This document shows, in pieces, positions 89-24,041 of a stretch of DNA of 64,000 nucleotides; position 1 is the first letter of the stretch; every line of letters begins with the position of its first letter. A model generated the notes under the pieces. It was not told the origin of the DNA. It saw only the letters and a list, made by a program, of their open reading frames with translations, and did no database searches. The position numbers were made by a program, and so were the translations under genes. Source of the DNA: a virus; IMG/VR virus record IMGVR_UViG_3300036399_001571, positions 108,520-172,519 of that record; one strand, given 5' to 3'.

Positions 89-112
89 CTCCTTTTCGGT
101 AGCCAGTTGTGA

Positions 113-535: not shown

Positions 536-693
536 TATGCCCTGCCTTTCGTAGTAGTTGATTGGGGCAGTAACGACATTACAACACCCGATATCAGATT
601 TACAAAGTGCTTTCCGCCACCGTCATCTAAACACCGATACTTGACAAGCCCTCTCACACCTGCTAGCGCACCAACTTTTTTCGGCTGGTTGGG

Positions 694-707
694 CGAACAT
701 ATGTTCG
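694..707. promoter_or_regulatory. LexA/SOS-box-like palindrome CGAACATATGTTCG
   Basis: Matches actinobacterial CGAAC-N4-GTTCG; intergenic. Confidence 0.6.
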
Positions 708-797
708 GTGAGCCCCGGTGGGTCAGCCCGCACGGCGGGGCTTATTCATAAAAAATGGCAGAGAGCTCGAAGCCCCCTGCCTAATTTTTATCGAGTG

Positions 798-1202
798 TCA
801 GTCTCTCCACTCCGTGACCACTGGCGTCAAGTCCATGCTCTCTCTGCTGTTGTTTATCATGGTGCCCAACTCCAAGTCATGTGAAGCCTCTAGAGCCATG
901 TTGGCAAAGTGTTCTGTCATGAAGTCGCTCGGAACGTCAGTGTCATAGCCTTCATCGTCAGCGATACCGACCAGCACAGCGTCACCAGCGAGAACCCTGC
1001 GGAACAACAAAGACGTGATGTTGTTTGTCGGCAGGTCAATGAGCAAGCCTTCGTCATGTACGTAGGCAGTAACGCCCATTTCCCAATCGTTCACACAGTC
1101 AAACCAGCCACCAACTAATTCGTGAATGACGGTATGCGCACCGTCACGTGGAATGTCAATAGCGGTTACTTCACCGCTTGTTTTCACGAGTACTGCTTTC
1201 AT
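798..1202 (-). CDS. DUF3846-like phage protein
   Basis: LVGGWFDCV, VHDEGLL..LPTN, LAGDAVLVG motifs; RBS and promoter upstream. Confidence 0.7.
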   Translation of the reverse strand: MKAVLVKTSGEVTAIDIPRDGAHTVIHELVGGWFDCVNDWEMGVTAYVHDEGLLIDLPTNNITSLLFRRVLAGDAVLVGIADDEGYDTDVPSDFMTEHFANMALEASHDLELGTMINNSRESMDLTPVVTEWRD

Positions 1203-1271
1203 TTTTTCCCTCTTTCGTAGTAGTTGATTAGAGATTACAGGAATAGATATCAGATTTACAAAACAATTTGA

Positions 1272-1436
1272 TTAGTGAACTAAATTACTTTCGGGAACGA
1301 TTGCGAGTGGGTCAAACTTTCCTGAACCACTTACACGAACCAAGTAACGCAGGTGATTGTCGTAACCAACAACCACTCCACTGATGATGTTCCCGTGATT
1401 GTCACGGTACGCCACCTGCGAACCCTCGTCTTTCAT
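1272..1436 (-). CDS. small hypothetical protein (54 aa, MKDEGSQV...)
   Basis: ATG after GAAAGGGG RBS and promoter at 1477; shorter than the ORF-track call. Confidence 0.65.
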   Translation of the reverse strand: MKDEGSQVAYRDNHGNIISGVVVGYDNHLRYLVRVSGSGKFDPLAIVPESNLVH

Positions 1437-1618
1437 AAGCACCCCTTTCGTTGAGTAGTAGTACCTTACAGGAACCGATATCAGATTTACAAAAATACAT
1501 AGCCCCGCTAGCTTTGCGACAGGTTGTACAGCGGGGCTTTCATAGCGGCAAATAGATTGCGCTGCGCACCCATTACTAGAAGTGGGTTCTGTTGCCAAGC
1601 CCCACTCGGCTCCGTTTG

Positions 1619-1861
1619 TTAGACAGTGATGGTTCCACCTTCCCAAATGCCTCGGGTGCGGTGTCCTACCAGTGGATACTCATAGTTGAGGTATCCAAGT
1701 GGGTAGTCCGCAGCGAAGCGATTTGTTGCGATGACGGTCGCCATGTCAATGCCACAGCGCTCCAAGTCACGCACAAAGGACAGAATCAGGTGTGTGTAAA
1801 CCACACGCTGACGAATCATCTGTCCATCGTGGAACTGAAGAATGCTCTTTTTCATATTCAC
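1619..1861 (-). CDS. hypothetical protein (80 aa)
   Basis: GTG start after AAAGGGGG RBS; promoter at 1922. Confidence 0.7.
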   Translation of the reverse strand: MNMKKSILQFHDGQMIRQRVVYTHLILSFVRDLERCGIDMATVIATNRFAADYPLGYLNYEYPLVGHRTRGIWEGGTITV

Positions 1862-1972
1862 CCCCTTTCAAAGAAGTGTGGTTCGAGCGGTTCTCGAACG
1901 CAGTAGCACCTTAGTAAACCCGATATCAGATTTACAAAACAGCAAGGGCGCAAATAAGCCCCGGCACAACTC

Positions 1973-2143
1973 CTACCGCATGCTCCCTGAATACATTCTG
2001 TCCTGAAGGTCTGCGAAGTGATAATCGCACAATGAAACGGTAATAACGCCACTCTCATACTGGCGCACAGTGCCACCGCACATATCTGCGCTATCGGCAT
2101 TGGTGTCGTATTCTCGGCATTGTTGGTGTGTTTGGTTATTCAT
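1973..2143 (-). CDS. small hypothetical protein (56 aa, MNNQTHQQC...)
   Basis: ATG 9 nt after the -10 box of promoter 2167, near-leaderless; below ORF-track cutoff. Confidence 0.55.
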   Translation of the reverse strand: MNNQTHQQCREYDTNADSADMCGGTVRQYESGVITVSLCDYHFADLQDRMYSGSMR

Positions 2144-2301
2144 AGTGATATGACCTTATCAAACTAGATATCAGATTTCCAAATTGAACAATAAGCCCCG
2201 GCATTAGGAGAAAGCAATACCTCTAATGAGGCGGGGCTCCTGGCCAAATAAGTGACGCAGGTTTCCCCACGCCACCTAATCGGTTGAACTTGCTTCGCTG
2301 A

Positions 2302-2604
2302 TTATTCCTCGTAGCGAAGGTCGTAATCCTCAATGTCGTCACACCATGCGCCAAGGTGGTGAGATTCAATGATTGCCCATGCAGGCGCACTCGTCTTACC
2401 CTTCCACGACACACCTTCAGGCAATTCAATGAGTTCATCCCCACTGAAGTCTGCGTTGTAACTGTCAATTGCTTGAATGCACACTGGCACCATTGACAAT
2501 GGCACTGGCGGGTAGTGATTACTCCGCAGGTGGATTGCTAGGGCTGTATCCAGTGATAGGCCCATGTCGTTGTCGGCTAGTTCGCTTGCTAACTGATTAC
2601 CCAT
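2302..2604 (-). CDS. hypothetical phage protein (100 aa)
   Basis: ORF with AAGGGGG RBS. Confidence 0.75.
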   Translation of the reverse strand: MGNQLASELADNDMGLSLDTALAIHLRSNHYPPVPLSMVPVCIQAIDSYNADFSGDELIELPEGVSWKGKTSAPAWAIIESHHLGAWCDDIEDYDLRYEE

Positions 2605-2893
2605 TATTTGCCCCCTTCAGGACTAGTAGTAGTGAAGTTGGTGGGAGCCTGTCGGGGGACATTTCCATCCCCCGATTAGCGTTATAGGACACTCTTCAGT
2701 CCCACCAACAGTAAACACTTTACGGTATGCGATATCAAATTTACAATTCACGACTGGCCACCCCTGCGCCTTCAGGAGCGTGGTTTGAGCCCCGCATACC
2801 AACTGTCTTGGGTGTTGGAGTGGCGGGGCTATAAAGCCAAAAAAGTCGAGCAACCTACTGGCTGCCCGACTTCTCGGAGGGTTTTACTGGCGC

Positions 2894-3133
2894 TTACTGG
2901 CGCTGGAGTTTGTACAACTCGTAAATCCAGCCAGTGCCACCGCCGTAGTGATACTTCTCACCAACAGTGTTCTTCATTTCGTACAGCGCGTCATCCAACA
3001 TGTAGATGGCTCCCTCTCCTTCTTCGCTCTCGAGATTCCTGAGCATTTCAGTCATCTCATCGAGCAAGGTCCTAAGTTCTTGGGCGATTTCCCCAACACT
3101 CTTTACCTTTTCTTCTTCCAGTATTTCGTCTAT
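2894..3133 (-). CDS. acidic hypothetical protein, apparent ATA start, possible paralog of 3490-3738
   Basis: 79-codon open frame after AAAGGGG RBS; YHYGGGTGW resembles YWYGSADGW of the neighbour. Confidence 0.5.
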   Translation of the reverse strand: MDEILEEEKVKSVGEIAQELRTLLDEMTEMLRNLESEEGEGAIYMLDDALYEMKNTVGEKYHYGGGTGWIYELYKLQRQ

Positions 3134-3153
3134 GTCTTTCCCCTTTGTTCGAA

Positions 3154-3169
3154 TGTTCCACGTGGAACA
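3154..3169. promoter_or_regulatory. parS-like palindrome TGTTCCACGTGGAACA
   Basis: Perfect 16 bp palindrome (20 bp with flanks) matching the chromosomal parS consensus. Confidence 0.65.
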
Positions 3170-3241
3170 TTTCCTTACAAGACCAACTCTAGTACACCTG
3201 ATATCAGATTTACAACTTCACTTTTTAGCCCCGTCTTGGGG

Positions 3242-3255
3242 CGAACATATGTTTG
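3242..3255. promoter_or_regulatory. LexA-box-like CGAACATATGTTTG
   Basis: One mismatch to CGAAC-N4-GTTCG, ~25 bp upstream of promoter 3200. Confidence 0.5.
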
Positions 3256-3316
3256 CAGCCGTAGGCGGGGCTATAAAACTAAAATGTCGGGCAACCGATT
3301 TGGCTACCCGACACTT

Positions 3317-3493
3317 TCAGTCGATTTGGATTTTGTCAAACACTTCGGCTCGAGCATTGAGCATCGCCCAATGAAAAGCGTCCATGAAAATCTGCTGCTT
3401 CTCTGCCGACCTGAACTCTCGCTCGGCGTGGGCTCGAGCCTCGGCGGTCTTAACCGCCAAGAGCCCGACCCACCACTCGACCTTCTCGTTCAC
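3317..3493 (-). CDS. small hypothetical protein (58 aa, MNEKVEWW...)
   Basis: GTG overlaps the TGA of 3490-3738 (translational coupling). Confidence 0.55.
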   Translation of the reverse strand: MNEKVEWWVGLLAVKTAEARAHAEREFRSAEKQQIFMDAFHWAMLNARAEVFDKIQID

Positions 3494-3738
3494 CAGTTAG
3501 CCGAGTTAAACGGCTCTTTGTTTGGTTCTTTGAGCGCTCGCTCCCAGCCGTCGGCACTGCCGTACCAGTAACTTCCCTTGTAATCACTGACGATGTAGCC
3601 GAGTTTCCCTAGCACTGCTTCCTCGATTGTCTCGTCCTCGGGTTGGCTGTCGAGTATCTCGAGTAGTTCGAGTACCGCTTCCCTGATTTCATCAAGAGCC
3701 TTCGCTCCTGCTTTCCGCACCTCTACTTGACCTTCCAT
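3490..3738 (-). CDS. hypothetical protein (82 aa)
   Basis: AAGGGG RBS; promoter TTGCAA-17-TAGAGT at 3798-3826. Confidence 0.75.
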   Translation of the reverse strand: MEGQVEVRKAGAKALDEIREAVLELLEILDSQPEDETIEEAVLGKLGYIVSDYKGSYWYGSADGWERALKEPNKEPFNSANW

Positions 3739-3759
3739 TACTTTCCCCTTTTCTCGGAA

Positions 3760-3775
3760 TGTTCCACGTGGAACA
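3760..3775. promoter_or_regulatory. parS-like palindrome TGTTCCACGTGGAACA
   Basis: Second perfect copy (22 bp palindrome 3757-3778) in a 5' leader. Confidence 0.65.
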
Positions 3776-4030
3776 TTCGGTTTTTCTTACAAGACCAACT
3801 CTAGTACACCCGAAAGAGAATTGCAACTTTTATTTATAGCCCCGCAGAAGTTTTTTTCATTTAACATACAGATGACATACAGGTAACATACAAATTTTCG
3901 TCAGCAGAAGGGCAGGCGGGGCTGTTTTGAGAAAAAAATAAGCCACACCAAAACTCAACGCAGGTTGAAAGGGGTAAAACGCGGAGTAATGGTGTGGCTA
4001 TTTATTAGTAGGTATTGCTACCCACTAAAC

Positions 4031-4285
4031 CTAGTTTGACATTTCGTGAGTTTGCTCGTCAAACCTTCCAACTAAGTGAGGCTGTAATACCTCGTTGTAT
4101 CCGTCTGCAATACTGCAAGCCTGCGAGTGAGAAACACAGGGCATTGAGTATTGTAGGAAGTCGCTACTGTCTCCAGTAGGTGACTGAATATGAAGCATTA
4201 CTGCCCAAGTAGTAGAAACCCCATAAACCTGCATTGGGTCGTGGACTACTTGTGCGCTAACGATAGAACCTTTACCTGATTTCAT
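4031..4285 (-). CDS. hypothetical protein (84 aa, MKSGKGSI...)
   Basis: TAATG overlap with upstream gene; GAAAGGT RBS. Confidence 0.6.
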   Translation of the reverse strand: MKSGKGSIVSAQVVHDPMQVYGVSTTWAVMLHIQSPTGDSSDFLQYSMPCVSHSQACSIADGYNEVLQPHLVGRFDEQTHEMSN

Positions 4286-4533
4286 TACTTGCCTACCTTT
4301 CCAGTAGTGAGTGTTTGCTCTAGGACTAGCCACGAGTGACCAGAACTTGTGTTTGCGTGGATTTGGAAACTGTAAGTGTTGTAGTCGCCTACACTCTCCC
4401 AGTATTCCGAAGCCTCGTCAGTTGCCAACCAAGCCTCACACTCTTTACGAGTGTCTGCCTCAAAGGCTGGCGTGTCGCTATCTGGGAGACAGCCTGCGCT
4501 TGCCCACCAAACCTGATAAACGGTATGTTTCAT
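4285..4533 (-). CDS. hypothetical protein (82 aa)
   Basis: AAGGGG RBS; promoter at 4597. Confidence 0.75.
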   Translation of the reverse strand: MKHTVYQVWWASAGCLPDSDTPAFEADTRKECEAWLATDEASEYWESVGDYNTYSFQIHANTSSGHSWLVLEQTLTTGKVGK

Positions 4534-4739
4534 AATTTCCCCTTTCCGAGAAACTTACGGGGATACTTTCCCCGTTGAGATAACAGTACAGGACTAGATA
4601 TCAGATTTACAAAATTACTTATTGCGCTTTATTACTGCGTAGATATAGGTAAAGATAACGCCACTAAGAAACCCAATAATTAGCCCTTGTGTGTACATAA
4701 CTGCTTGCACGATTTTTTCTTTCCGTTGTAGGTGATACT

Positions 4740-4768
4740 AAATTACAGGCTTGTAGTGATTATGTCAA
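4740..4768 (-). promoter_or_regulatory. sigma-A-type promoter TTGACA-17-TAATTT
   Basis: Canonical -35, 17 bp spacer, extended TG -10. Confidence 0.6.
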
Positions 4769-4865
4769 GGATTTCGATATAGCCCCGCATATCGGGCTGA
4801 GCCCGTCTAATAGCCGGGGCTCCGGGAAAAATTTCAGCCGGGTGAACAGGCTGAAACTGGTGGGC

Positions 4866-5120
4866 TCACCAAGTCGAAAGGTCGACGCCCCCGTGTGGGA
4901 AGTTCTCGGCGAAGCCTGTCGTCCAAATCGAGTTGCCTGTTGGGCACCTGTAAGTGTCGTGCTCCCCGAGCTTGTCCAGTATGTCCACGATGACTTCGTC
5001 ACCAGCGACTGTCACCAGTATCACATGGCCCTCGTAGACCTTGTATGAGCTGTCGCCAGCGTTGATGTATGTACCAATGCGCAGCTTCTCTGCGTCTACG
5101 AGCTGTGGCGTGTAGTTCAT
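4866..5120 (-). CDS. hypothetical protein (84 aa, MNYTPQLV...)
   Basis: ATGA overlap with upstream 41-codon ORF 5117-5242. Confidence 0.6.
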   Translation of the reverse strand: MNYTPQLVDAEKLRIGTYINAGDSSYKVYEGHVILVTVAGDEVIVDILDKLGEHDTYRCPTGNSIWTTGFAENFPHGGVDLSTW

Positions 5121-5335
5121 TCCCAATCCAACCCGTCTGTGAAGGCCTCGTTCTCTGCGTACCACGCAAGGTCGTCCTCTTGTACGAGGTGCCCGTCCAG
5201 TGTGTACTCCCCGTCATCCCACGGGTTGAATTCTGCTTTCATTTTGTGCCCCTTTCAGTTGGCCTTGCTTCCGTGCTCCAAACATTACAACACGCGATAT
5301 CAGATTTACAAAACGGGCGAACAGGCCAGCCCGGG

Positions 5336-5349
5336 CGAACATGTGTTCG
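5336..5349. promoter_or_regulatory. LexA-box-like CGAACATGTGTTCG
   Basis: Exact CGAAC-N4-GTTCG upstream of promoter 5296. Confidence 0.6.
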
Positions 5350-5450
5350 TGCGCGACCCGGAGTCCCGGCTATCAGGCGCGAGCGCCGGGGCTCATGGAA
5401 AATTTTGGGGGTGTAACAAGGTTTTTATTCCCTGTCACACCCCCTCGGGT

Positions 5451-5768
5451 TTAGAACTCGTAGGAGTAGTAGTACCTGCGACCGCTCAGGTGAAGCACAG
5501 CCCAACTATCCAACGAATCACCAATCTGAACCCACCTTCCGTTTTTGCGGAGTGTAAAGCAAGCGGTTGGGTTGTTTGGGTTTGGTGTAATTTCCCAGTC
5601 GTTGCTGTAAGGCTTCGCACCTTCGGCTGGCTTGACATCGTCTTGCTGAACGATAATCTTCTTGCCGTTTTCACTGACGAAAACAATCGTTACTGAGTGA
5701 GTGTCCACTCCGTTGCTTACGTGTGCGCCGTTTCCGACTACTGGCTTTATTCTTTCCTTGGTTTCCAT
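5451..5768 (-). CDS. hypothetical phage protein (105 aa)
   Basis: GAAAGGGG RBS; promoter at 5818. Confidence 0.8.
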   Translation of the reverse strand: METKERIKPVVGNGAHVSNGVDTHSVTIVFVSENGKKIIVQQDDVKPAEGAKPYSNDWEITPNPNNPTACFTLRKNGRWVQIGDSLDSWAVLHLSGRRYYYSYEF

Positions 5769-5935
5769 TGTGTCCCCTTTCGTGGAACTCGTTTACAAAA
5801 TAAACTTTACAGTACGCGATATCAGATTTACAAAAATTGGAATTTTTTACATAGCCCCGCTGCCGGATTTTTTATTACTATGCCGGGGCTAGCTAAGAAA
5901 AAAGAGCAGGCGCTTTCGCACCCACTCTCTCTCCG

Positions 5936-6127
5936 TTATCGGGTTGCGGACTGCACTCGGTCAGCGAGGTTCTTGATGGCGATTTGCAGACTAATCGTTA
6001 CCATGTAGAGGTAATGATTTTCAATTTTGTCCTTTTTGTAAATCTCTAGGATTTCTTCCCGTGTCTTGATGAGTGACAGGATTTCGTCTGCGCATTCTGT
6101 AAGACTGAGTGTGTTGTCTGTTTCCAT
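5936..6127 (-). CDS. hypothetical protein (63 aa)
   Basis: GAAAGGGG RBS; promoter at 6181. Confidence 0.7.
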   Translation of the reverse strand: METDNTLSLTECADEILSLIKTREEILEIYKKDKIENHYLYMVTISLQIAIKNLADRVQSATR

Positions 6128-6199
6128 TTCGTGCCCCTTTCGTAAGGCTTGTTGTTGTTACTGATTACATTACAGCAAGCGATATCAGATTTACAAAAG

Positions 6200-6213
6200 C
6201 GAACATGTGTTTG
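6200..6213. promoter_or_regulatory. LexA-box-like CGAACATGTGTTTG
   Basis: One mismatch; abuts the -35 of promoter 6181. Confidence 0.5.
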
Positions 6214-6305
6214 CCCAGCCCCGCTGCACCTTCGTGTAAAGAATTTATGCCGGGGCTTTCAGCAATGAATATCGTTGACTGAATAATTCATAAAGTGAAA
6301 ACGCA

Positions 6306-6338
6306 ACCGGGGAGACTCGGTGGTGAAGTCTCCCCGGT
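6306..6338 (-). terminator. strong hairpin, probable terminator
   Basis: Perfect 12 bp stem ACCGGGGAGACT/AGTCTCCCCGGT right after the stop of 6345-6632. Confidence 0.65.
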
Positions 6339-6344
6339 CAGGAT

Positions 6345-6632
6345 TTAGTAGACGACTACCGAGGCCTTCGTCCACTTGGTGAATGAGTGAGTGCTAGGCA
6401 CTCCGTCAATGGTGAGCACTAGGAACTTTCCTGCGTTGCTCCACTTTTTATTCTCAGGTGCAATCTTTGAAATTGTTCCCGTTGCGTATCCCCACGCCTG
6501 TCGCTCACGGCGTGTGGTGTTCTTTCCGAACAGGCGAGCTTCAGTCTCGCCAGTCACCGTGTTGGTGATATAGCCAACCAGTATTTGGTCGCCGACTTCT
6601 AGGTCGCTTACTTTTACCCTTGTTGTTTCCAT
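6345..6632 (-). CDS. hypothetical protein (95 aa)
   Basis: GAAAGGGG RBS; promoter at 6675. Confidence 0.75.
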   Translation of the reverse strand: METTRVKVSDLEVGDQILVGYITNTVTGETEARLFGKNTTRRERQAWGYATGTISKIAPENKKWSNAGKFLVLTIDGVPSTHSFTKWTKASVVVY

Positions 6633-6684
6633 TGCTATCCCCTTTCAGTTGGATAAATAAATCGTACAACAAGCGATATCAGAT

Positions 6685-6858
6685 TTACAAAATACCCTCG
6701 AGCCCCGCAGTCGCGGTTACAGACGCGCTCTCTGCTGTCATCAAGTGAAGTCGTATGTCAAGAAGCAAGTCCTGCATTTCGCTTGAGGCTACGAGTTCAC
6801 GGCTAGAGATATTGACTAGCGCCTTATCAAGAAGTGTGATTATTTCTTTTTCGTTCAT
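6685..6858 (-). CDS. small hypothetical protein (57 aa, MNEKEIIT...)
   Basis: ATGA-coupled to the upstream gene; its TAA stop is inside the next promoter's TTGTAA. Confidence 0.5.
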   Translation of the reverse strand: MNEKEIITLLDKALVNISSRELVASSEMQDLLLDIRLHLMTAESASVTATAGLEGIL

Positions 6859-7037
6859 TGTGGGCAGTCCTCGTATGGGTTGGGGTTTCCTTCATTGTCC
6901 TCGCAAGAACAGAAGCCGAATAATTCTACTTGAGTTTCGTGAGTGAGTTCAGTCAAGTCCTCGTATGACGGGGAGCCCCGTAGTTCCTCTATCACTAAAC
7001 TCCAAAAATCCACAAAAAGTTTCTCTTGTGAGTTCAC
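6855..7037 (-). CDS. small acidic Cys-containing protein (60 aa)
   Basis: GTGA overlap with upstream gene; GAGGGG RBS. Confidence 0.5.
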   Translation of the reverse strand: MNSQEKLFVDFWSLVIEELRGSPSYEDLTELTHETQVELFGFCSCEDNEGNPNPYEDCPQ

Positions 7038-7231
7038 TTCTTGCCCCTCATCTCCAAGCCGATTAGTACTACGGCAACTCCGACTAACACTTGACTTACT
7101 CCTACCCACTGAAGGATAGAGGCGAGTTCGTTACCCGTGAGAGAGGCGTAGGCGTTCTCTTTCTGCCAGAACCAAGCACCGATTAGTGCGCTTACTGAAC
7201 CAAGTCCAATAATCCAGTCGGGCTTATTCAT
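7034..7231 (-). CDS. small membrane protein (65 aa)
   Basis: Two hydrophobic segments; coupled to upstream lipoprotein gene. Confidence 0.6.
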   Translation of the reverse strand: MNKPDWIIGLGSVSALIGAWFWQKENAYASLTGNELASILQWVGVSQVLVGVAVVLIGLEMRGKK

Positions 7232-7707
7232 TACGCACTCCTCATTGGGCATACTTCCCAAAAAGCACGATAGAAATCACTTGCCGCGTCATTCACATCG
7301 GTTATGTAATTGTTCACCGATAGGTCACGCCTTTCTGATTCCCAATAAGCGTTGTAAGCGTCTAGATATTCATCTATGACATTTACAAAAACACTTTGCT
7401 CAAAAGACACGGTTGGTATGTCAAGTGTTCTCACATACGAGCGAAGGTCTCGTAAGGCACTCACCTTCGCCTCATATTCAGACCGACTTGGTATTCCTCC
7501 GTTGTCTGTTGCGTTTTCCCACGACGCTTCTACATCGTCTGCGAGTAGTGAGATTTTTTCAGCAACAACCTTATTGCAGTCTTTGCCATAACTAATTGTT
7601 GTAGTTGTCGCAATGGTTGTTTCCACTGCTACGGGCTCACTGTTGCCACAAGACGAAATACTCATTACGAGTATCGCCCCTAGTAATACTGTCTTTACTG
7701 CTTTCAT
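7231..7707 (-). CDS. putative lipoprotein (158 aa)
   Basis: MKAVKTVLLGAILVMSISSC signal with lipobox Cys, then Thr-rich linker. Confidence 0.65.
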   Translation of the reverse strand: MKAVKTVLLGAILVMSISSCGNSEPVAVETTIATTTTISYGKDCNKVVAEKISLLADDVEASWENATDNGGIPSRSEYEAKVSALRDLRSYVRTLDIPTVSFEQSVFVNVIDEYLDAYNAYWESERRDLSVNNYITDVNDAASDFYRAFWEVCPMRSA

Positions 7708-7895: not shown

Positions 7896-7988
7896 TACTT
7901 ATCCCCTTTCTAAGGGCTTGTTGTTGTTAGTAATAACTTAGGGCAACGGATATCAGATTTACAAATCCACTTATAGCCCCGGTGGATG

Positions 7989-8321: not shown

Positions 8322-8472
8322 TGCTCTCCCTTTCAGTAGGTAACTAAATCATATCCGAGCCGATATCAGAATTACAGGATACCCGTGCGGGGCTATTTCG
8401 AGCCTTTATGGATTTGTAAATCTGATATTGGGGACTATATGCTTTACTTATCCACGAGAAAAGGGGAAAGAA

Positions 8473-9124: not shown

Positions 9125-9141
9125 TTTACTATCGGAGAAAA

Positions 9142-9459
9142 ATGACAGCAGTAGCAGTAAGAGTGAGCGCACCACCGAGTGGCGATTTGCCTTGTACTGG
9201 CAGGCAGGATTTGTTTTATGGCAAGTACGCCGAAAGACCTGAAGCACGATTGCGCCGTGAAGAAAAAGCCAAAAAAGTTTGCGCTACTTGTTCACAGGCG
9301 ACTATTTGCCGTGATTACGCCCGTAGTAATGGCGAAGTGTTTGGTATTTGGGGCGGAGAAACAGAAATGGAAAGATACAGCGCAGGATTTATGTTGTCAG
9401 TACCACCTCACTTGTCACGGAGAGTTGTTACTATGAAAGAAAGATATGGGAACTTATAA
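9142..9459 (+). CDS. whiB: WhiB-family Fe-S transcription factor
   Basis: Four Cys (C..., CATC, IC) and GIWGG turn; GGAG RBS. Confidence 0.9.
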   Translation: MTAVAVRVSAPPSGDLPCTGRQDLFYGKYAERPEARLRREEKAKKVCATCSQATICRDYARSNGEVFGIWGGETEMERYSAGFMLSVPPHLSRRVVTMKERYGNL

Positions 9460-10195: not shown

Positions 10196-10225
10196 AACGC
10201 CAAGCATAGCAAGTATGATGAGCCA

Positions 10226-12148
10226 GTGAGACTTTATCTTGACCACGATTTACTAGCCCTTGACTTCCCGTATGACCCAGCACAAGTTGCCGAAGTCAAG
10301 TCAATAGCCGGGGCTAGCTGGGACAAGGTGGACAAACTGTGGAAAGCACCCGTAGCCTCAATTGACGAGGTGCGAGCCTTTGCGATAAAGCACGATTTTG
10401 AGATAACAGACGAAGTACTTAGGTTCACTGCCCCAAAGAGAGCGTCACGAAAAGGTGTGTATCTCAAAGGTGACTGGACTTATATCCAATTCCCCTATGA
10501 CAAGGTTGTACTCAAAGCAGTAAAGCAAATAGCAGGGGTAACTTGGGATAACAAAGAGATGGCGTGGAGAGCGCCACTTACCTCAACAGCCGAAGCAATA
10601 GCGTGGGCTAACTCATTTGGAGTACTTGTGTCGCCCGAAGTACACGGAGTATCTGCCTCAATGACTAAGAAGTTAGATGAACTAAAGGAAGCCTCACGCT
10701 CAACCGACGCTGATATAGAAGTGCCTTCACTACAAGGAACGCTACTGCCTTACCAAAGAGCAGGCGTGGAGTATGCGTCTAAAGCCCGTAGAAGTTTTAT
10801 CGCAGACGAAATGGGACTTGGAAAGACGATACAAGCGATAGCGACACTGGAATATTCGTCAAAAGATAGCGAAGTGTACCCAGCAGTAATCGTCTGCCCC
10901 CCTTCACTTGTACTGAACTGGAAGTCGGAGTGGAATAGGTGGTTGCCTGATAGACGAGTTGCCGTTGTAACCAACCGTAGAGAGATACCAGAGCCCCGTT
11001 CATATGATGTGCTCGTTGTCGGATACTCAAATATTTCTCACTGGGAAAAGCAACTACTTGCGCATAACTCTTATGTGTTTGACGAGAGCCACTACGCCAA
11101 AAGCCCAACGGCACAGCGAACTAAGTCGGCTATAAAAATGGCAAAGAGTGCCCCTAAACACGGGATAGTCCTATGTCTTACTGGAACACCCGTAACCAAT
11201 AGACCAGCGGAGTACGCCAGCCAATTAGACATAATCGGAAAACTAAAAGAGTTTGGTGGCTTGTGGGGATTTTATAGACGGTATTGTTCAGCCTTCCAAG
11301 ACAGGTTTGGTCAATGGAATATCAGCGGTCACTCGCACCTTGACGAACTCAACGACAGGCTTCGTGGTACTTGCTATATCAGACGAACCAAGTCGCAAGT
11401 GCTTACTGAACTGCCACCCGTGATACACAGCACCCTTGTAGTAGAGGGGACTGATGCGGGGCTCAAGGAGTATCGGAAGGCAGAAAAAGACATAATAAAG
11501 TACATAACCGATAGAGCAAAAGAGATAGCGATAGAACTCGGGGAAAGCCCGTACTCGGCTTCGGTTATTGCGAGAATAAAAGCAGAAAGCAACGAACATC
11601 TAGTAAAACTCTCGGTACTTAGACGGCTCGCTGCGAAAGCCAAAATGCCAATGGTTGAGGAGTGGGTACAGTCCCGCATTGACGACGGAAAGAAAGTGGT
11701 AATCGCAGCGCACCATAGAGACGTGGTAGATGAACTCGCACGAAAGTTCGGCAACCTTCGTATTCAGGGTGGTATGTCGGTTGAGGAAGTGGAAGCACAA
11801 AAAGCACGATTTCAGAACGAACCCGTAGAGACTGCGCCAGTTATTGTGTTATCTATTCAGGCAGCGAAAACTGGTCACACGCTTACAGCCTCGCAAGACA
11901 TACTCTTTGTAGAACTGCCATACACGCCAGCAGACCTAGACCAAACTTACTCACGCCTTCACCGAATTGGGCAGACAGGAAGCGTTACGACTACTTATAT
12001 GCTCGTTGACGGGACTATTGACGAGGAAATCTATGCGCTCATAGAAAAGAAGCGCAAGGTAGTGAACGCTTCAGTTGAGGGTGGAGAGTTCGCTGAAGGT
12101 GGCAACGCTACGCAGTTGGTACTTGACTTACTCAACCGATATCGATAA
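10226..12148 (+). CDS. SNF2-family helicase/translocase with two HARP-like N-terminal domains
   Basis: LLPYQ, ADEMGLGKT, DESH, LTGTP, QTYSRLHRIGQ motifs; duplicated FPYD...K.IAG..WD...W.AP. Confidence 0.92.
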   Translation: MRLYLDHDLLALDFPYDPAQVAEVKSIAGASWDKVDKLWKAPVASIDEVRAFAIKHDFEITDEVLRFTAPKRASRKGVYLKGDWTYIQFPYDKVVLKAVKQIAGVTWDNKEMAWRAPLTSTAEAIAWANSFGVLVSPEVHGVSASMTKKLDELKEASRSTDADIEVPSLQGTLLPYQRAGVEYASKARRSFIADEMGLGKTIQAIATLEYSSKDSEVYPAVIVCPPSLVLNWKSEWNRWLPDRRVAVVTNRREIPEPRSYDVLVVGYSNISHWEKQLLAHNSYVFDESHYAKSPTAQRTKSAIKMAKSAPKHGIVLCLTGTPVTNRPAEYASQLDIIGKLKEFGGLWGFYRRYCSAFQDRFGQWNISGHSHLDELNDRLRGTCYIRRTKSQVLTELPPVIHSTLVVEGTDAGLKEYRKAEKDIIKYITDRAKEIAIELGESPYSASVIARIKAESNEHLVKLSVLRRLAAKAKMPMVEEWVQSRIDDGKKVVIAAHHRDVVDELARKFGNLRIQGGMSVEEVEAQKARFQNEPVETAPVIVLSIQAAKTGHTLTASQDILFVELPYTPADLDQTYSRLHRIGQTGSVTTTYMLVDGTIDEEIYALIEKKRKVVNASVEGGEFAEGGNATQLVLDLLNRYR

Positions 12149-12244
12149 GCCCCGCACTCGCTTCCGTTCTGTAAATCTGATATCGGGCTTACTAGGCTTA
12201 CGTTGCCGTAAGGCAAACGAGCCCAATGAAAGGGGGTGAGCAAA

Positions 12245-12421
12245 ATGGAACAGTGGCAAGAGGAGGGTTTCGCTTCAGAGGAGGAATTCTTTGAGTTACA
12301 GCGAAGCCTTTGCGAGGAGGAACAGCGGGCGGAATTCATTATGAGTTACGTCGCTGGTGGTGGCTTGTCAAGCGAGGCGCAAATCGCTTGGTTTCACCAC
12401 AACCACTCGTGGGGCGAGTAA
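12245..12421 (+). CDS. small acidic protein (58 aa)
   Basis: Downstream of plus-strand promoter 12170 and AAAGGGGG RBS. Confidence 0.6.
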   Translation: MEQWQEEGFASEEEFFELQRSLCEEEQRAEFIMSYVAGGGLSSEAQIAWFHHNHSWGE

Positions 12422-12482
12422 CCCACAGAGGCAGGGGCTGGGGCTGGCAACCCTTGTCCCTCGCCTGCGCGTGTGGCGGGGC

Positions 12483-12905
12483 TTACTCGGTTTCTTTGGT
12501 TGGAACTCTGCCCATAAGTTCGTCAGCAATTAGTTTTGCGTACTTTCTGCGCAGTTTCCATACTTTTTGGTTCATTTCAGCCATTGCGTCAGTGTTTCGT
12601 GCTTTCTTTATGCTGTCGCTGTCAAACACGCCGTACTTTCTGAACAAGATGTCGTCAATATCGTTGTTTTCTATCATTATGTCGGTAATCCAATGGCCCC
12701 GCTTGTCAATGCTAAGCAACAGTTCGCAAAGACCCTCAAATCCAAACTCGTTATAGACACGATTAGTCACTAAGTCACAAAAATGCGCACGATACATAGT
12801 CTCGGCTTCGGCAGTGTGCGTCATAAACTCACTCAGCCATACGGCGAGTTCTTCTTTTGACGGAATATCACCGTCTTCACTGTCAAACTCAAAGTCGTCT
12901 TCCAT
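12483..12905 (-). CDS. hypothetical protein (140 aa)
   Basis: ORF with GGAAGG RBS. Confidence 0.7.
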   Translation of the reverse strand: MEDDFEFDSEDGDIPSKEELAVWLSEFMTHTAEAETMYRAHFCDLVTNRVYNEFGFEGLCELLLSIDKRGHWITDIMIENNDIDDILFRKYGVFDSDSIKKARNTDAMAEMNQKVWKLRRKYAKLIADELMGRVPTKETE

Positions 12906-12961
12906 TAGCCTGCCTTCCGTTGCGCCGGGGCTCTAGTAATCAATGATACTTGTGGCAACTG

Positions 12962-13987
12962 TCAAGCCAAAGACAGAATAACTTCTTGCGCTAACACTTT
13001 CTTTTGTGTCACCCACGAGTTGTTGTTCATTGAGGCAAGCGCCCGTTCATCTGCTTTTGCGTCACGATAATGGTCAAGGTATTCAGCAATAGCGTTGTAA
13101 GCACTCCACCCGTTATACCCGTAGCCACCTGCGTTGCGTTCGTTGTCATACACGCCACGAACTAATGCCACTACCCCGTCACGGTTTTTCTTTTGTCTCT
13201 CCGTACCGTTCATTTCGTTCGGGAATACCTTGTCAAGTATCGTTGCGAGTTGCGCACTTCGTGGTGGAACGTTGATAGCAAGCAAGCGATTAGCCGTAAG
13301 TTGGAATGACTTCGCCCACTCCGTTGATATTTCTAGGACTTTTTGCGCTTCCTCAATAGCATTATCAGCGTTACGAGTGTGTCGTGCCGTGAATACCCGA
13401 CGAGCCGACGACTGCCCTGCGATTACCGTGTTTTTACACACCGCACGAATTGAGGTATTGGCAAAGGTGATAGCCGTCTTACCGTCGTGTCCGTTGCGAA
13501 CTAGCAAGTAACGGTCTATCTTGTCGTTGATACCCGTAGGGTCTATGACGAGTTGCCCCAAGTCAAGCGAACTAAAGAACTCTCTACCTTCGTCAAGTAC
13601 GCCACAAGTATCTACTACTGCGTCGCCCTTAGAAGCCCCGACTATTGCGAGGGCATACTCCAAGCACTCACGGTTTTGCTGTACGACATAGCGAGTGCCA
13701 ACCGTAGCAAGTCCGTCAAAAGTGCCGTCGGGGTTCACTCTCACGGTTGCCCGACTGTCCTCAATAACGACTGGCGTATTATCAGGATTTCTGATTAGGT
13801 TGCCCTCTGCGTCTACGACTGCGACTTTAGTAGTGACGACATCAAAGTCTGCTTGCGCCGCCTGAAGCATTGCCTCTGCTGTTTGTAGCCCCTTCATAGG
13901 CACTCCAAGCCTATGCCACGGGACTTCACGGTCTGCGTAAGCCATTTTCGCTACGCCCTTAGTGTCTACTTCTAGCATATGCGCCAT
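12962..13987 (-). CDS. DUF932 / phage-plasmid-like protein (TIGR03299-like)
   Basis: PWHRLG, VGTRYVVQQN, RNGHDGK, IRAVCKNT, WSAYNAIAEYLDH motifs. Confidence 0.88.
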   Translation of the reverse strand: MAHMLEVDTKGVAKMAYADREVPWHRLGVPMKGLQTAEAMLQAAQADFDVVTTKVAVVDAEGNLIRNPDNTPVVIEDSRATVRVNPDGTFDGLATVGTRYVVQQNRECLEYALAIVGASKGDAVVDTCGVLDEGREFFSSLDLGQLVIDPTGINDKIDRYLLVRNGHDGKTAITFANTSIRAVCKNTVIAGQSSARRVFTARHTRNADNAIEEAQKVLEISTEWAKSFQLTANRLLAINVPPRSAQLATILDKVFPNEMNGTERQKKNRDGVVALVRGVYDNERNAGGYGYNGWSAYNAIAEYLDHYRDAKADERALASMNNNSWVTQKKVLAQEVILSLA

Positions 13988-14088
13988 AACTTCGTGCCTC
14001 TCGCTGTTACTTCTAGTTAGATTTATCTAAAGGCAAGCATACACTCGCCCCCTGCCTCACAGTGTATGCCGGGGCTATCTCGACATAA

Positions 14089-14124
14089 CAAAAAGGGGGG
14101 CAGGCTGTGACACCTACCCCCTTC
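14089..14124 (-). terminator. Rho-independent terminator
   Basis: AAGGGGG/CCCCCTT stem with T-run on minus strand after 14137-14361. Confidence 0.6.
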
Positions 14125-14136
14125 GCTTTCGTTTTG

Positions 14137-14361
14137 TTAGTTGTATTCGTTGGTTAGCCAGTCATCACTTGACTTAGTGACTGGCGTAGCGAACTGACCA
14201 AATAACTGGCGAGCATATGGTGCGACAATTTCAGCGCCTCGCTTGACGGTCTGAAACTGCGTCACCTTTCTACCTGCCTTGTATCCAACGGCACTACCTA
14301 AGCCGAACGATACGACTGCTGTCATTGTTAGTAGTACGAGTACTGCGATTATTTCTATCAC
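14137..14361 (-). CDS. small membrane protein (74 aa)
   Basis: N-terminal hydrophobic helix; AAAGGGG RBS. Confidence 0.65.
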   Translation of the reverse strand: MIEIIAVLVLLTMTAVVSFGLGSAVGYKAGRKVTQFQTVKRGAEIVAPYARQLFGQFATPVTKSSDDWLTNEYN

Positions 14362-14397
14362 TTGCTTCCCCTTTGTTAGTAGTAACTTACCTACCTA

Positions 14398-14426
14398 AGT
14401 ATAGGGATAGTCATAGTACTTGTCAA
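14398..14426 (-). promoter_or_regulatory. sigma-A-type promoter TTGACA-17-TATACT
   Basis: Near-consensus boxes with 17 bp spacer. Confidence 0.75.
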
Positions 14427-14532
14427 GTCACCCGTACGACACCCGTAGGCACTTGCGAACTTCACAGAAATACGACTTGTGCCGTGTTTGTGTGGTTGTA
14501 TAGGTGGCGTGGTGGCTATAAGCCCCGGCTTT

Positions 14533-14811
14533 TCACTGCCTCTTGTCGTCTACGAACTCTGCGTATGCTTTCAGTGCTTCATCAGGTGCGCCGTCTACTA
14601 GATATTGGTGCATAACGCCTGCGAGGTCACGCCACTTGCCGTCACTTAGTACCTTCTCGGTAATCGTGTAGCCTTCGTGTTCGGTTGCCCAACTTATTGA
14701 GTGGGGCTGTGCCTTGTGTAGATAAGCAACGGCTTCGTAGTAAGTGCCGAAACTCTCAAGCACTGCGCCGTCTCTCGCTACTTCGTAACTAATCTGCGCT
14801 TCTGTGTTCAC
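14533..14811 (-). CDS. hypothetical protein (92 aa)
   Basis: GTGA-coupled to LysM gene. Confidence 0.7.
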   Translation of the reverse strand: MNTEAQISYEVARDGAVLESFGTYYEAVAYLHKAQPHSISWATEHEGYTITEKVLSDGKWRDLAGVMHQYLVDGAPDEALKAYAEFVDDKRQ

Positions 14812-15080
14812 TTGTCAAACCTCACTTCTTGAGACACTCGGATTACTTGTCCGTACTTCGCCACTAGGTCATCAGTCGCTTTCAGTGTGTTGCCGTGACA
14901 CCACTTGACTGCTAAGCCACTTAGGGTATCGCCTTCCTGAACGATTACTCGGTCAATATCGCAACGATAATTTTCGTCGCCTCGCATTGAGATAATCATT
15001 GCGATAATCGTCACGAGGAATACGAGTGGGAGTGTAATCAGGTCACGCTTGCTTGGTCGGTTTGTGTAGTGGTTGTTCAT
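14808..15080 (-). CDS. membrane-anchored LysM-domain protein
   Basis: TM helix then VIVQEGDTLSGLA; paralog of 7989-8321. Confidence 0.72.
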   Translation of the reverse strand: MNNHYTNRPSKRDLITLPLVFLVTIIAMIISMRGDENYRCDIDRVIVQEGDTLSGLAVKWCHGNTLKATDDLVAKYGQVIRVSQEVRFDK

Positions 15081-15108
15081 TGTCTGCCCCTTTCAGTAGG
15101 TACTAATT

Positions 15109-15137
15109 ACACTAGGGTAGTTTGTGACAAAGGTCAA
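15109..15137 (-). promoter_or_regulatory. sigma-A-type promoter TTGACC-17-TAGTGT
   Basis: 17 bp spacer, upstream of RBS of 14808-15080. Confidence 0.6.
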
Positions 15138-15289
15138 GGATTTCCGAGCCTTATGGGCATTGGGTTATACCCGTAGGGCTACCCGTAGGCACTGCGCCAA
15201 CCTCATAGGGATTAGTAGGTGGCAGGGTGAGTGTGTTGCCACTACCTATGCCGGGGCTTCGAGCTTGCTGTTCGGTAATGGCAGGTGGA

Positions 15290-16072
15290 TTACTTAGTGA
15301 CGGTGCGCTTCTTTGGTGACTTCTTAGTGACTTGCTTCTTTGGGGCGGTGCGCTTGCTCACTGTCACTGATTTGTTTGGCGTGGGTAGCACTGTCACGGT
15401 AATCGCTCTAGCACTCTCAACCACTAGCACTGTCGTTGTTGTCGTTGTCGTAGGTGCTTCGGTAATCACTGGCTCACTCTCAACCACTGTCACTGGCTCA
15501 CTGTCTGCTACTGCTTCGGCTGTCTCGGATACAGGGACTGTCGTAGTCGTGGGTGCGATAGTCGTTGTCGTAGTCGTAGGGGCGAGGGTAGTCGTAGTCG
15601 TAGTCGTGGTCGTAGGTGCTTCGCTCACGGCTTCATTACAACTAACTGAACAGTCGCCATTGGTGACTACTGGATTACTACTAGCACCAACCAACTGATA
15701 GACGGCACTACGAGCGAGGGCGGTATCTATTCCGTCACGCCATAGGGCGAGCATAAAGTTAGGGCGATAGCCGTTGCCACCTGAACCGTGACCAATACCA
15801 ACTCCGACATATTCGCACACTGCGAACCATTGGTGCGCTTTCGCTATCGCCTTACCTAGTGCGCTATGACCACCATTGGAATAGGTAACTAATCTCTCAA
15901 ATGCTTCAGTGCCTATCTCGGTGTCAATAATCGTTATGACTGTCGGTTGCTGTGACGAGGGTGCTTCTCTCGGCTCACTACACTCACTTGCTCTCGCTTC
16001 GGTGATAGTGACAAGGGGTAGCGATAGCGATAGGGCTAGGGCTAATGCGATAAAGGTTCGTGCTTGCTTCAT
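15290..16072 (-). CDS. secreted protein with Thr-rich stalk and Lys-rich tail (260 aa)
   Basis: Signal peptide MKQARTFIALALALSLSLP; poly-Thr runs; PKK-rich C-terminus. Confidence 0.7.
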   Translation of the reverse strand: MKQARTFIALALALSLSLPLVTITEARASECSEPREAPSSQQPTVITIIDTEIGTEAFERLVTYSNGGHSALGKAIAKAHQWFAVCEYVGVGIGHGSGGNGYRPNFMLALWRDGIDTALARSAVYQLVGASSNPVVTNGDCSVSCNEAVSEAPTTTTTTTTTLAPTTTTTTIAPTTTTVPVSETAEAVADSEPVTVVESEPVITEAPTTTTTTTVLVVESARAITVTVLPTPNKSVTVSKRTAPKKQVTKKSPKKRTVTK

Positions 16073-16130
16073 AGTAACTCTCTCTCGGTATGGGCTACCC
16101 GTAAGGCTACCCGTAGGCATTGGAATTTTT

Positions 16131-16487
16131 TCACTTTTTTTCGCTTATCCACTCACCACCACTGGCGAACACTGTCTCTCCCTCATTGGTGAAACTCCAA
16201 GCGTAATCGCAACAAGGCTTTTGCTCATAGGGGCTAGGGTGTGCGCCTTTCTCTAGCGACTTCGCTAGTAGTGGGAATGTCTCTAGTAACTTGACGATAC
16301 AAGCGTGGCAGATATTCCACGACTTAGGTTCACTATCAGACATTAGAAACTCAAGGTTGTCGGTGAAACCACCATAGAAACCAAATGCTTCATAGGGTAA
16401 GCACCAACCACTGTCTAGTGTTGTTGCTGTCGGGTGACTTACGAGCTTGACTTCATCACAAGCGTCACACTTCACTGCGTTGCTCAT
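16131..16487 (-). CDS. Cys-rich hypothetical protein (118 aa)
   Basis: CDAC, CHAC, CC; ATGA-coupled. Confidence 0.7.
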   Translation of the reverse strand: MSNAVKCDACDEVKLVSHPTATTLDSGWCLPYEAFGFYGGFTDNLEFLMSDSEPKSWNICHACIVKLLETFPLLAKSLEKGAHPSPYEQKPCCDYAWSFTNEGETVFASGGEWISEKK

Positions 16488-16777
16488 AGTGCGTACTCTC
16501 CACGCTTACGGCGATAGTGCGATACAAAGTCATCACTGTCGTAGTCACAAGGCGTCCACACTATGTCGGCTTCGCTAAAGGTATCGTCAAGGTGTAAGCG
16601 AACTACTACATAGTCAAATGCGTCATAGGCGTTGTATGCGATAAACCTCATACAGCCTACGAGGGTAGAACGGTGTTCGTAGTGACTAGGTAAGTCATAG
16701 CGACACATACTCCAAGCGTCACCATAAGAGGGACACTCAACCACTGCGTACCTGCGTCTATCTTTCTCAATAGTCAT
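16484..16777 (-). CDS. hypothetical protein (97 aa), probably leaderless
   Basis: ATG 6 nt after the -10 TACGCT of promoter 16798, no SD. Confidence 0.65.
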   Translation of the reverse strand: MTIEKDRRRYAVVECPSYGDAWSMCRYDLPSHYEHRSTLVGCMRFIAYNAYDAFDYVVVRLHLDDTFSEADIVWTPCDYDSDDFVSHYRRKRGEYAL

Positions 16778-16816
16778 AGTGTAAGCGTAGGGTAGGTGAT
16801 ATCAGAATTACTAAAT

Positions 16817-16905
16817 GGGGTAAGCAAGTAGGTAAGAGTAAGCAACGAGGTAAGCGAGTAGGTAGGTAAGCGAGTAAGTAAGTAGGTAGGTAAGTAGGTA
16901 GGTGT
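16817..16905. repeat. low-complexity GTAA/GTAG tract
   Basis: Irregular GGTAAG/AGTAGG/GTAA repeats in an intergenic gap. Confidence 0.6.
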
Positions 16906-17019
16906 TACCCGTATGCTACCCGTGTGCCTTGCGTTAGTCATACTCTCTCAACTTCAGTGCGAAATAGATAAGGGCGATACTTGCTAGGCAGAATAACTCA
17001 AGCACTGTCTCACCACTCA

Positions 17020-17220
17020 TTAGTCATTGCCTTGCGTATCGTTGCTATCCACTGCGTAGTCACTGCTGTCAAGCGTGAACTTAGGCATAACGAATAGCGT
17101 GTTGCCTATGCTGTATGCGTTACGGCTTGCGTTGTAAATTGCGTCAGGGAATAAGCGAACTAAGTCAATTGCTTTCAGTGGCGTATCGCTTAGGTGAACT
17201 ATGTTGCGTATTCGTGCCAT
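17020..17220 (-). CDS. hypothetical protein (66 aa)
   Basis: ATG after AGTAAAG; start uncertain. Confidence 0.5.
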   Translation of the reverse strand: MARIRNIVHLSDTPLKAIDLVRLFPDAIYNASRNAYSIGNTLFVMPKFTLDSSDYAVDSNDTQGND

Positions 17221-17233
17221 TGTCGTTGTCGCT

Positions 17234-17458
17234 TTACTTCGTACTAGCGACTGCGTGTGCGTAATAAATATCGTCACACCACTCTGCCAACTTCACTAAG
17301 TCGGCGACTAACGAACCTTGCGAGTTGAGCAACCCACGCAACCCATCAGGCAATGTTTGTGAATTGCTGTCACCACTGCGTGTTGTGTTGTGTATCGCCG
17401 TGATTAGGTCGCTAGCAATTTTTGCTATGTCACCAAAGTCGTTTGCGTTGTATACCAT
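17234..17458 (-). CDS. hypothetical protein (74 aa)
   Basis: AAGGGGG RBS; promoter at 17501. Confidence 0.65.
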   Translation of the reverse strand: MVYNANDFGDIAKIASDLITAIHNTTRSGDSNSQTLPDGLRGLLNSQGSLVADLVKLAEWCDDIYYAHAVASTK

Positions 17459-17547
17459 AATGCCCCCTTGTGTAGTAGTTACGGTAAGCATAGCGTATGC
17501 GATATCAGATTTACAAAACGCCTTCCAGAGTGGTAGGCGGGGCTCTT

Positions 17548-24014: not shown

Positions 24015-24041
24015 TTCTTCTCCTTTTTTGATTTATCCTAG

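Follow-up and report, generated by a model that had tools for sequence, protein, structure and literature searches.

Within a 64-kb stretch of DNA from an uncultured phage (the window; bases 108520-172519 of the 172,519-bp record IMGVR_UViG_3300036399_001571), we found many copies of one promoter in which a near-invariant block stands at a fixed distance from a sigma-type -10 element. Related phages keep this design and rewrite the block. Because the block is near-invariant within a genome yet rewritten from lineage to lineage, and because orthologous promoters have switched in concert while their spacers drifted, a co-evolving, phage-specific trans-acting factor must, on the evidence of these sequences, read the block; the host sigma factor alone would not be enough. 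An original prediction made from the window alone had already called for a second protein beyond sigma-A, and the lineage-specific blocks and the concerted switch support this.

The motif tTTTGTAAATCTGATATC-N8-TAnnnT occurs 18 times in the window. Its core, ATCTGATATC, gave 19 matches with at most one mismatch, against 3.2 ± 1.7 in shuffled sequence, and none of 100 shuffles reached 19. One of the 19 is a palindromic echo at 3196, which leaves 18 sites. All of these read (t)TTTGTAAATCTGATATC-N8-TAnnnT, with TAnnnT beginning exactly 8 nt past the block and a spacer of 18 nt behind a TTGTAA-type hexamer. The hexamer itself is TTGTAA at 14 sites, CTGTAA at two, and TTGGAA and TAGTAA at one each; TTGTAA matches TTGACA at four of six positions and lies exactly 18 nt from the -10 in the window copies. 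The plus strand has two of the sites (8413 and 12168) and the minus strand the other 16. The earlier description of a fixed 18-nt spacer at every copy, each pointing at a gene whichever its strand, was thus upheld, the spacing at 18/18 sites.

The 18 copies first counted are all real, but the number is an undercount. A motif search of the whole genome and its relatives, which had been proposed as a check, returned 30 phased copies in this genome plus one orphan block without a -10 (1/31). All are confined to 95.4-126.0 kb, and the array thus begins upstream of the window; the relatives keep the architecture but change the block. No second multi-copy motif was found in the remaining 140 kb outside the 95-126 kb region, and the exact 16-mer gave nothing but single chance matches in IMG/VR. 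Counted position by position over the 30 phased sites, the element consists of 17-18 near-invariant bases, eight that are nearly free, and then the T, A and T of TAnnnT. The block carries about 2 bits per position across 17 positions, and its end is exactly 8 nt from TAnnnT in 30/30 sites. The -10 has T-12, A-11 and T-7 in 30/30, most often as TAAGGT (7) or TAATGT (3). These bounds also correct the idea of an operator inside the spacer, since the conserved element is one block of 17-18 nt that takes in the -35 hexamer and is not confined to the spacer.

At 27 of the 30 sites, a start codon preceded by a Shine-Dalgarno sequence lies 24-77 nt downstream of the -10. Two further sites, both on the minus strand, look leaderless because their ATG is only 6-9 nt past the -10: 2153-2183 (block variant TTTGGAAATCTGATATC; 9 nt, near-leaderless) and 16784-16814 (variant TTAGTAATTCTGATATC; 6 nt). 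We propose that the 30 promoters drive one to three small genes each and together make up a mosaic 30-kb early or host-takeover region. Early timing of these genes is plausible.

The host is very probably an actinobacterium, since this one phage carries three WhiB-like genes above the Pfam cut-off and its nearest capsid and helicase relatives are those of actinophages (Gordonia phages for the capsid, at 48%, and Arthrobacter phages for the helicase, at 33%). The WhiB-like family is known only from Actinobacteria and their phages. The three genes are at window 9142-9459 (plus strand, in the operon behind the block promoter at 8413), window 31326-31718 (minus strand) and locus L081:13993-14325 (plus strand). 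Actinobacterial SigA promoters usually have the shape TTGnnn, about 18 nt, TAnnnT, and often the -10 alone suffices. With such a host, the TTGnnn-18-TAnnnT arrangement fits SigA. The data support reading the sites as sigma-A-type promoters with a fixed 18-nt spacer, whose activity and dependence on SigA we infer.

Relatives were collected as 53 loci through the helicase gene beside the array (58-100% identity) and 32 more through the gene at its left edge, and their block types were aligned on the -10. They retain a block, 6-8 nt and TAnnnT, and the block differs by lineage, with more than 10 types. Among these are TTTGGAAATTTGGTAT(C/T), TTGGAAATCTGAAG(T/C)ACC, TTTGTATCTGTCCTGTGC with a 17-nt spacer, TTGGTTTCTGAYAYWGC, TTTGTCGGnTnnGGGTGGG, cTAGACATYTGTTGTA, GTTGTTTTTACCnCTTAnTACC, TAATCCGGAGAAnnACGCA, CTTnCCTGTTGACCATAG, TTTGAGATAGGTTGCACG and CTTGTTGGGTTGGGTAAG. 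In one GC-rich lineage the conserved element, GCTATCTTTATT, overlies the -10 itself. The -35 hexamer ranges from a 5/6 match (TAGACA) to about 1/6 (AATCCG), and the spacer is 17 nt in two lineages and otherwise of the 18-nt type.

The closest complete relative, G001 (160 kb, complete, helicase 98% identical), has 31 syntenic sites that read TTTGGAAATTTGGTATC. We compared 16 clearly orthologous promoter pairs, which share 85% identity, free of gaps, over the 75 nt downstream of the block. Position 5 has changed from T to G in 16/16 pairs, position 13 from A to G in 16/16 and position 10 from C to T in 13/16, while the 8-nt spacers of the same pairs are only 59% identical. Neither chance nor recognition by sigma-A explains such a concerted, position-specific switch. 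A MerR-type operator in the spacer was rejected as well. That arrangement needs a spacer of 19-20 bp and a dyad; the spacer here is 18 nt (17 in two lineages), and although GATATC in this genome is palindromic, the matching GGTATC in G001 is not.

The same comparison bears on whether a second protein is needed at all. Ordinary strong SigA promoters could have been homogenized by recombination between copies, a process also suggested for PeSL (promoter-early stem-loop) cassettes in T4-type phages, with a different master copy in each lineage. The array region is indeed mosaic between this phage (G000) and G001, many genes between promoters being present in only one of the two, and about half of the promoters follow a GGGGC hairpin (within 45 nt upstream at 14/30), as in terminator-plus-promoter cassettes (PMC2839356). 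We nevertheless consider this explanation quite unlikely. The bounds are sharp, with 17-18 near-invariant bases between unconserved flanks and poorly conserved orthologous spacers, and conversion tracts would not end alike in 30 copies. The same three positions have switched in 13-16 of 16 orthologous promoters with their flanks in place, and the information in the block is far above what SigA needs.

We therefore consider a mechanism with two readers. RNA polymerase of the host, carrying the housekeeping SigA of an actinobacterium, would recognize the low-information -10, TAnnnT. The block, at about -37 to -20, would comprise a weak -35 (TTGTAA) and the first 10-11 bases of the spacer. Its reader would be a phage-specified, fast co-evolving, sequence-specific factor held in fixed register with the polymerase; a non-sigma reader seems to be needed because about 2 bits at each of 17 positions far exceeds the requirement of a -35. 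This factor would most likely recruit or license the polymerase rather than just block it, comparable to the use of a MotA box in T4 or to a substitute for sigma region 4. Related phages would keep the design and rewrite the block, so that each lineage has its own transcription code.

We give this positive reading, with the block as a promoter-recognition element, about an even chance of being right. It is favored over an operator reading because the spacing between block and TAnnnT is exact in every lineage, even in one whose block has no -35-like hexamer. In that lineage, L134 (block AATCCGGAGAA..ACGCA), the core 11-mer ends exactly 13 nt before TAnnnT in 18/18 sites while those 13 bases vary. 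Since phasing is kept across variable bases, block and -10 appear to act as one unit. This strict phasing, together with the near-absence of orphan sites, suggests, if indirectly, a promoter-recognition element and argues against the view of the block as a repressor's operator that came with the original prediction.

The promoters without a block point in the same direction. Four had been described in the array, all with 17-nt spacers, and re-reading the sequences confirmed each of them. All are on the minus strand: 3798-3826 (TTGCAA-17-TAGAGT; a paralog of the 3186-3216 cassette, with gene 3490-3738), 4740-4768 (TTGACA-17-TAATTT), 14398-14426 (TTGACA-17-TATACT, 11/12 to consensus, with gene 14137-14361) and 15109-15137 (TTGACC-17-TAGTGT). 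In a plain consensus scan, 14426-14398 was the sole 11/12 match in 19 kb. The genes at 3490-3738 and 14137-14361 are absent from G001. These block-less neighbors have the better, TTGACA-like -35 at 17 nt, whereas the block promoters have a 4/6 match at 18 nt. The poorer -35 and longer spacer of the block promoters count for a positive element and against an operator laid over promoters that are strong by themselves.

Such an operator is nevertheless a possibility to be taken seriously, even if we regard it as rather doubtful. The sites would be strong SigA early promoters, and the conserved bases would bind one phage repressor that silences the early regulon. Either a shut-off repressor acting after infection or an immunity repressor would fit, with repressor and operator diverging together. 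Most lineages keep TTG at the -35, and what sets one lineage apart from another is mainly in the spacer. Cluster A mycobacteriophages offer a precedent of about 30 asymmetric, oriented sites that co-vary with a repressor, one of them overlapping an early promoter (PMC6550527, PMC9283540). Early promoters must also fire before any phage protein exists, unless the factor is injected, and two of the leaders have parS-type palindromes, perhaps a sign of plasmid-like carriage. Set against this, all blocks but one are phased to the -10 to the nucleotide, including those of the lineage without a -35-like hexamer, and the stoperators of Cluster A mostly do not lie at promoters. No Cro/CI-type gene was recognized among about 90 proteins scanned. 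No integrase was found in a search for tyrosine integrases (serine integrases were not searched), and no prophage relatives turned up among 185,579 bacterial species genomes. An immunity repressor is less likely for this reason, and the phage, which shows no sign of lysogeny, is probably lytic.

Several points weigh against the block as a promoter-recognition element. Most lineages retain TTG at the -35, so region 4 of SigA may still bind there; this fits a second, spacer-bound protein, conceivably a repressor. Because the -10 by itself is often enough in actinobacteria, promoter activity may not depend on the block. The fixed phasing could in part have been inherited through duplication of cassettes. 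Finally, searches for sigma region 2 and MotA and a survey of helix-turn-helix (HTH) candidates did not find the reader, and the HTH proteins that can be recognized have motifs that are invariant across lineages.

It is also conceivable that a phage sigma factor or RNA polymerase, too divergent to be detected, reads the whole element. Both phage sigma factors and T7-type polymerases typically use private, recoded promoters, this phage has giant unannotated virion proteins, one of them (2,652 aa) without a sequence match in Pfam or PDB, and a sigma factor is encoded by a Microbacterium phage that has 18-bp repeats (PMC7302621). We think this very improbable. Sigma region 2 (PF04542) was not matched at E ≤ 1 in any of 7 related genomes, where control profiles matched in 11/14 cases, a result that would still allow a very divergent sigma factor. 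The -10 remains the generic TAnnnT whatever the lineage, and the array also contains TTGACA-17-TAnnnT promoters without a block; together these indicate the host sigma. The MotA DNA-binding domain PF09158 (MotCF) had no match in the 7 genomes (AsiA was not searched). The T7-type polymerase profile PF00940 (RNA_pol) had none either, but its control profile matched nowhere. No other regulator emerged when about 90 more proteins were scanned against Pfam and PHROGs.

Candidate readers were judged by covariation, that is, by whether their DNA-reading parts change with block type. P0001 (123 aa) was rejected because its recognition helix, LSRQR(V/I)HQIV, does not vary across 21 sequences (this genome and 20 loci), of which 16 have a defined block, in about a dozen types. 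This protein (L082:2946-3317, plus strand) has a helicase-associated-type (HA) N-terminal domain and an HTH resembling sigma region 4.2; its gene marks the array's left edge, runs on the opposite strand and is followed by the sole orphan block, L082:3454-3470. The 213-aa TerS-like HTH protein P0002 has an HTH identical between G000 and G001, and the same is true of P0004, a 152-aa MarR-like winged-helix protein whose HTH is also nearly identical in four lineages. This exclusion is not absolute, since Cluster A repressors may differ in their sites even when their HTH motifs are identical, a second domain contributing (PMC6550527).

None of the other proteins fared better. Among the three WhiB-like proteins, no allele pattern tracks the block, apart from two residues beside the Cys motif of one. 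Alleles of n65, a small Zn-finger-like open reading frame (ORF) of the helicase operon, do not track block type, and those of another such ORF, n38, have two A/B-specific residues, seen across the single lineage split available. For the fast-evolving proteins encoded at genome 100178-100588 and 93126-93674, alleles and block type do not go together either, and the array begins with the same gene in A-type and B-type phages. A screen for genes in which G001 is closer to the B-type contigs G006 and G007 than to G000 gave no clean match outside the cargo polyproteins. One of the cargo modules, with two sigma-region-4-like units in tandem (window 62392-62874, minus strand), was rejected because G001 and G007 share a block and differ in its recognition helices, and because it is absent from the complete genome G003. 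It was found in the G000, G001, G002 and G007 lineages. About 160 aa long and placed immediately upstream of an LSSG-type junction (RLSSGK), the module has two tandem sigma-70-region-4-like HTH motifs; the R-E-x-x-R-Q signature of sigma region 4.2 is preserved in the first of them. A 136-aa early protein (L082:8178-8588, minus strand) is only 48-67% identical among phages in which the genes beside it show 87-97% identity. A rate of change this high would suit the target of an arms race; in Pfam this protein has only a sub-threshold match to the phi29 single-stranded DNA-binding protein.

Alleles follow the block types, and do so weakly, in one segment only, another cargo module, P0005 (window 58315-59328, minus strand; 338 aa). 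It is multi-helical and lies between two LSSG junctions in a protease-led cargo polyprotein. G001 and G007, which share a block, are 87% identical in this module and 94% in the helicase, whereas G000 is 62-65% identical to these two in the module and 98% and 92%, respectively, in the helicase. G010, with a third block type, is 57-60% identical to the others in the module and 86-90% in the helicase, and the values for G002 are 25-28% and 77-79%. One helix of the C-terminal helical domain reads AKIISR in the phage with TTTGTAAAT and TKVQTR in three phages with TTTGGAAAT.

P0005 might be a virion-borne reader of the block, cut from the cargo polyprotein, injected with the DNA and docking the host's RNA polymerase-SigA complex onto the phage's own promoters before any phage gene is expressed. 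If so, block and cargo module would be recoded together, giving a transcription code that neither relatives nor the host could use. We consider this identification unlikely. The match between alleles and blocks rests on essentially one evolutionary switch, the module is acidic, and Pfam reports an HTH only below threshold (E about 0.1). It had no sequence match in PDB and no match in the Atlas. With a structural model (pLDDT 77), Foldseek found nothing at E ≤ 0.001, and the best VIA-align score was a Z of 5.2 to lambda-repressor-like HTH domains (residues 252-335), which is within noise. The complete genome G003 has only a marginal match to the P0005 profile inside its cargo polyprotein (E = 2.8e-4).

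Among known systems, the closest working likeness appears, by analogy, to be the T4 middle promoters, at which a MotA box acts together with sigma-70 remodeled by AsiA (PMC2988021, PMC6755090). Both designs combine a host-sigma -10 with a phage-specific box over the -35, in fixed register and in dozens of copies, and the T4 factor acts with the host polymerase, as we propose for the reader of the block. The distance from box to -10 is 12 ± 1 bp in T4 and 8 nt here. The MotA box is 9-10 bp and tolerant, unlike the 17-18-nt, near-invariant block, TTG is kept at the -35 in most lineages here, and the probable host is an actinobacterium. With no MotA domain in the 7 genomes, a longer and stricter block, a retained TTG and another host, the array would not count as a member of the T4 system. 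MotA boxes are not known to be rewritten between close relatives.

The promoters of T7, T3 and SP6 resemble the array in having a private code, differences of a few bases between close relatives and a co-varying reader. Those promoters run through +1 and serve a single-subunit phage polymerase, whereas the -10 here is of the sigma type. Conserved early promoters are also found in Streptomyces phage phiC31. The stoperators of Cluster A phages (L5 gp71-type) share with the blocks an actinophage setting, about 30 asymmetric sites oriented with transcription and a lineage-specific consensus; that consensus co-varies with the binding protein, and a two-domain monomer can read an asymmetric site (PMC6550527, PMC9283540). 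They differ in being 13 bp long, mostly away from promoters and elongation-blocking, in temperate phages with a recognizable repressor, whereas 30/31 blocks here are phased to a -10, no tyrosine integrase and no prophage copies were found, and no repressor was recognized. The array shares its mosaicism, and perhaps its cassette layout, with the PeSL cassettes of T4-type phages, in which units of terminator plus early promoter are repeated around small dispensable genes in a hyperplastic, mosaic region (PMC2839356). Their similarity follows the sigma-70 consensus, unlike the block, which sigma would not read and which is recoded per lineage. Finally, the Microbacterium cluster EC phage Quhwah has multi-copy motifs of about 18 bp upstream of genes that are thought to be regulatory; there are 12 copies, they are more loosely conserved, and the phage has an annotated sigma factor (PMC7302621).

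Transcription control in actinobacterial phages, above all the abundant uncultured ones, is almost unknown. The array and its relatives offer a natural series of more than 10 promoter codes on one conserved architecture, including near-identical phage pairs that differ at three positions across 30 promoters. This is a clean system for finding a new promoter-specificity factor of the SigA holoenzyme and for asking why phages privatize their promoters. If the reader is found, the blocks would be ready-made orthogonal promoter parts for actinobacteria.

Besides the two leaderless-like sites, the window contains 16 block promoters. Fourteen are on the minus strand. The first of these in the window, at 576-606, has its block at 590-606, an 8-nt spacer and the -10 TAATGT at 576-581. 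It is followed by 1232-1262 (-10 TAATCT), 1463-1493 (TAAGGT), 1908-1938 (TAAGGT), 2717-2747 (block variant ATTGTAAATTTGATATC), 3186-3216 (with a parS-like palindrome at 3154-3169 in its leader), 4583-4613 (TACTGT), 5282-5312 (TAATGT), 5804-5834 (TAAAGT), 6167-6197 (TAATGT), 6661-6691 (TACGAT) and 7935-7965 (TAAGTT). The promoter at 8348-8378 (variant CCTGTAATTCTGATATC) is divergent to the plus-strand promoter at 8413-8443, whose operon holds small Zn-finger-like ORFs, the WhiB-like gene 9142-9459 and the helicase gene 10226-12148. The second plus-strand promoter, 12168-12198 (variant TCTGTAAATCTGATATC), lies past the helicase gene. The right-most of the array, 17487-17517 on the minus strand, has a first gene of 74 aa.

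The leaders and the sequences between genes have features of their own. A leader motif, CTAC(T/C)A, often in the form CAACTACTAC right before the Shine-Dalgarno sequence, is present in 14/30 leaders against 1.1% of random 64-nt windows (for example at window 540-575 and 1205-1231). Terminator-like hairpins number 33, against 18 ± 5 expected, and may act as terminators. Two perfect 16-bp palindromes of the chromosomal parS type, TGTTCCACGTGGAACA, lie at window 3154-3169 and 3760-3775, where 0.01 would be expected by chance. Each belongs to the 5' leader of one of a pair of paralogous cassettes, of which one has a block promoter and the other a block-less promoter, and the palindrome is present too in the orthologous leaders of relatives L091, L092, L101 and L104. 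One protein with a ParB_N domain is encoded in the packaging region (genome 12917-13711). In relative L120, 20 copies of the conserved promoter have CAYAAT at their end, six bases ahead of the ATG, and the mRNAs are therefore probably leaderless. L120 also has DnaA-box-like TTATCCACA repeats, and L126 has iteron-like TGTTCGATTT repeats (L126:11650-12400).

The record, although classed as linear, begins and ends with near-identical copies of a repeat of about 1.29 kb (bases 1-1292 and 171228-172519, the latter being window 62709-64000), with 100/102 bases identical in one sampled stretch. Because its ends repeat each other, the genome is about 171.2 kb and circularly permuted or terminally redundant. 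A search for close DNA relatives found no match to cultured phages. The phage has genes for a T4-type large terminase, a Baseplate_J protein, an HK97-type capsid, two giant virion proteins, ribonucleotide reductase, primase and helicase. The ORF of a 3,239-aa protease-led polyprotein spans the record junction on the minus strand, from window 58051-64000 into record bases 1-5100. Five tRNA genes, for Met, Arg(tct), Asn, Ser(tga) and Thr(tgt), lie at window 24041-24114 and 36635-37133.

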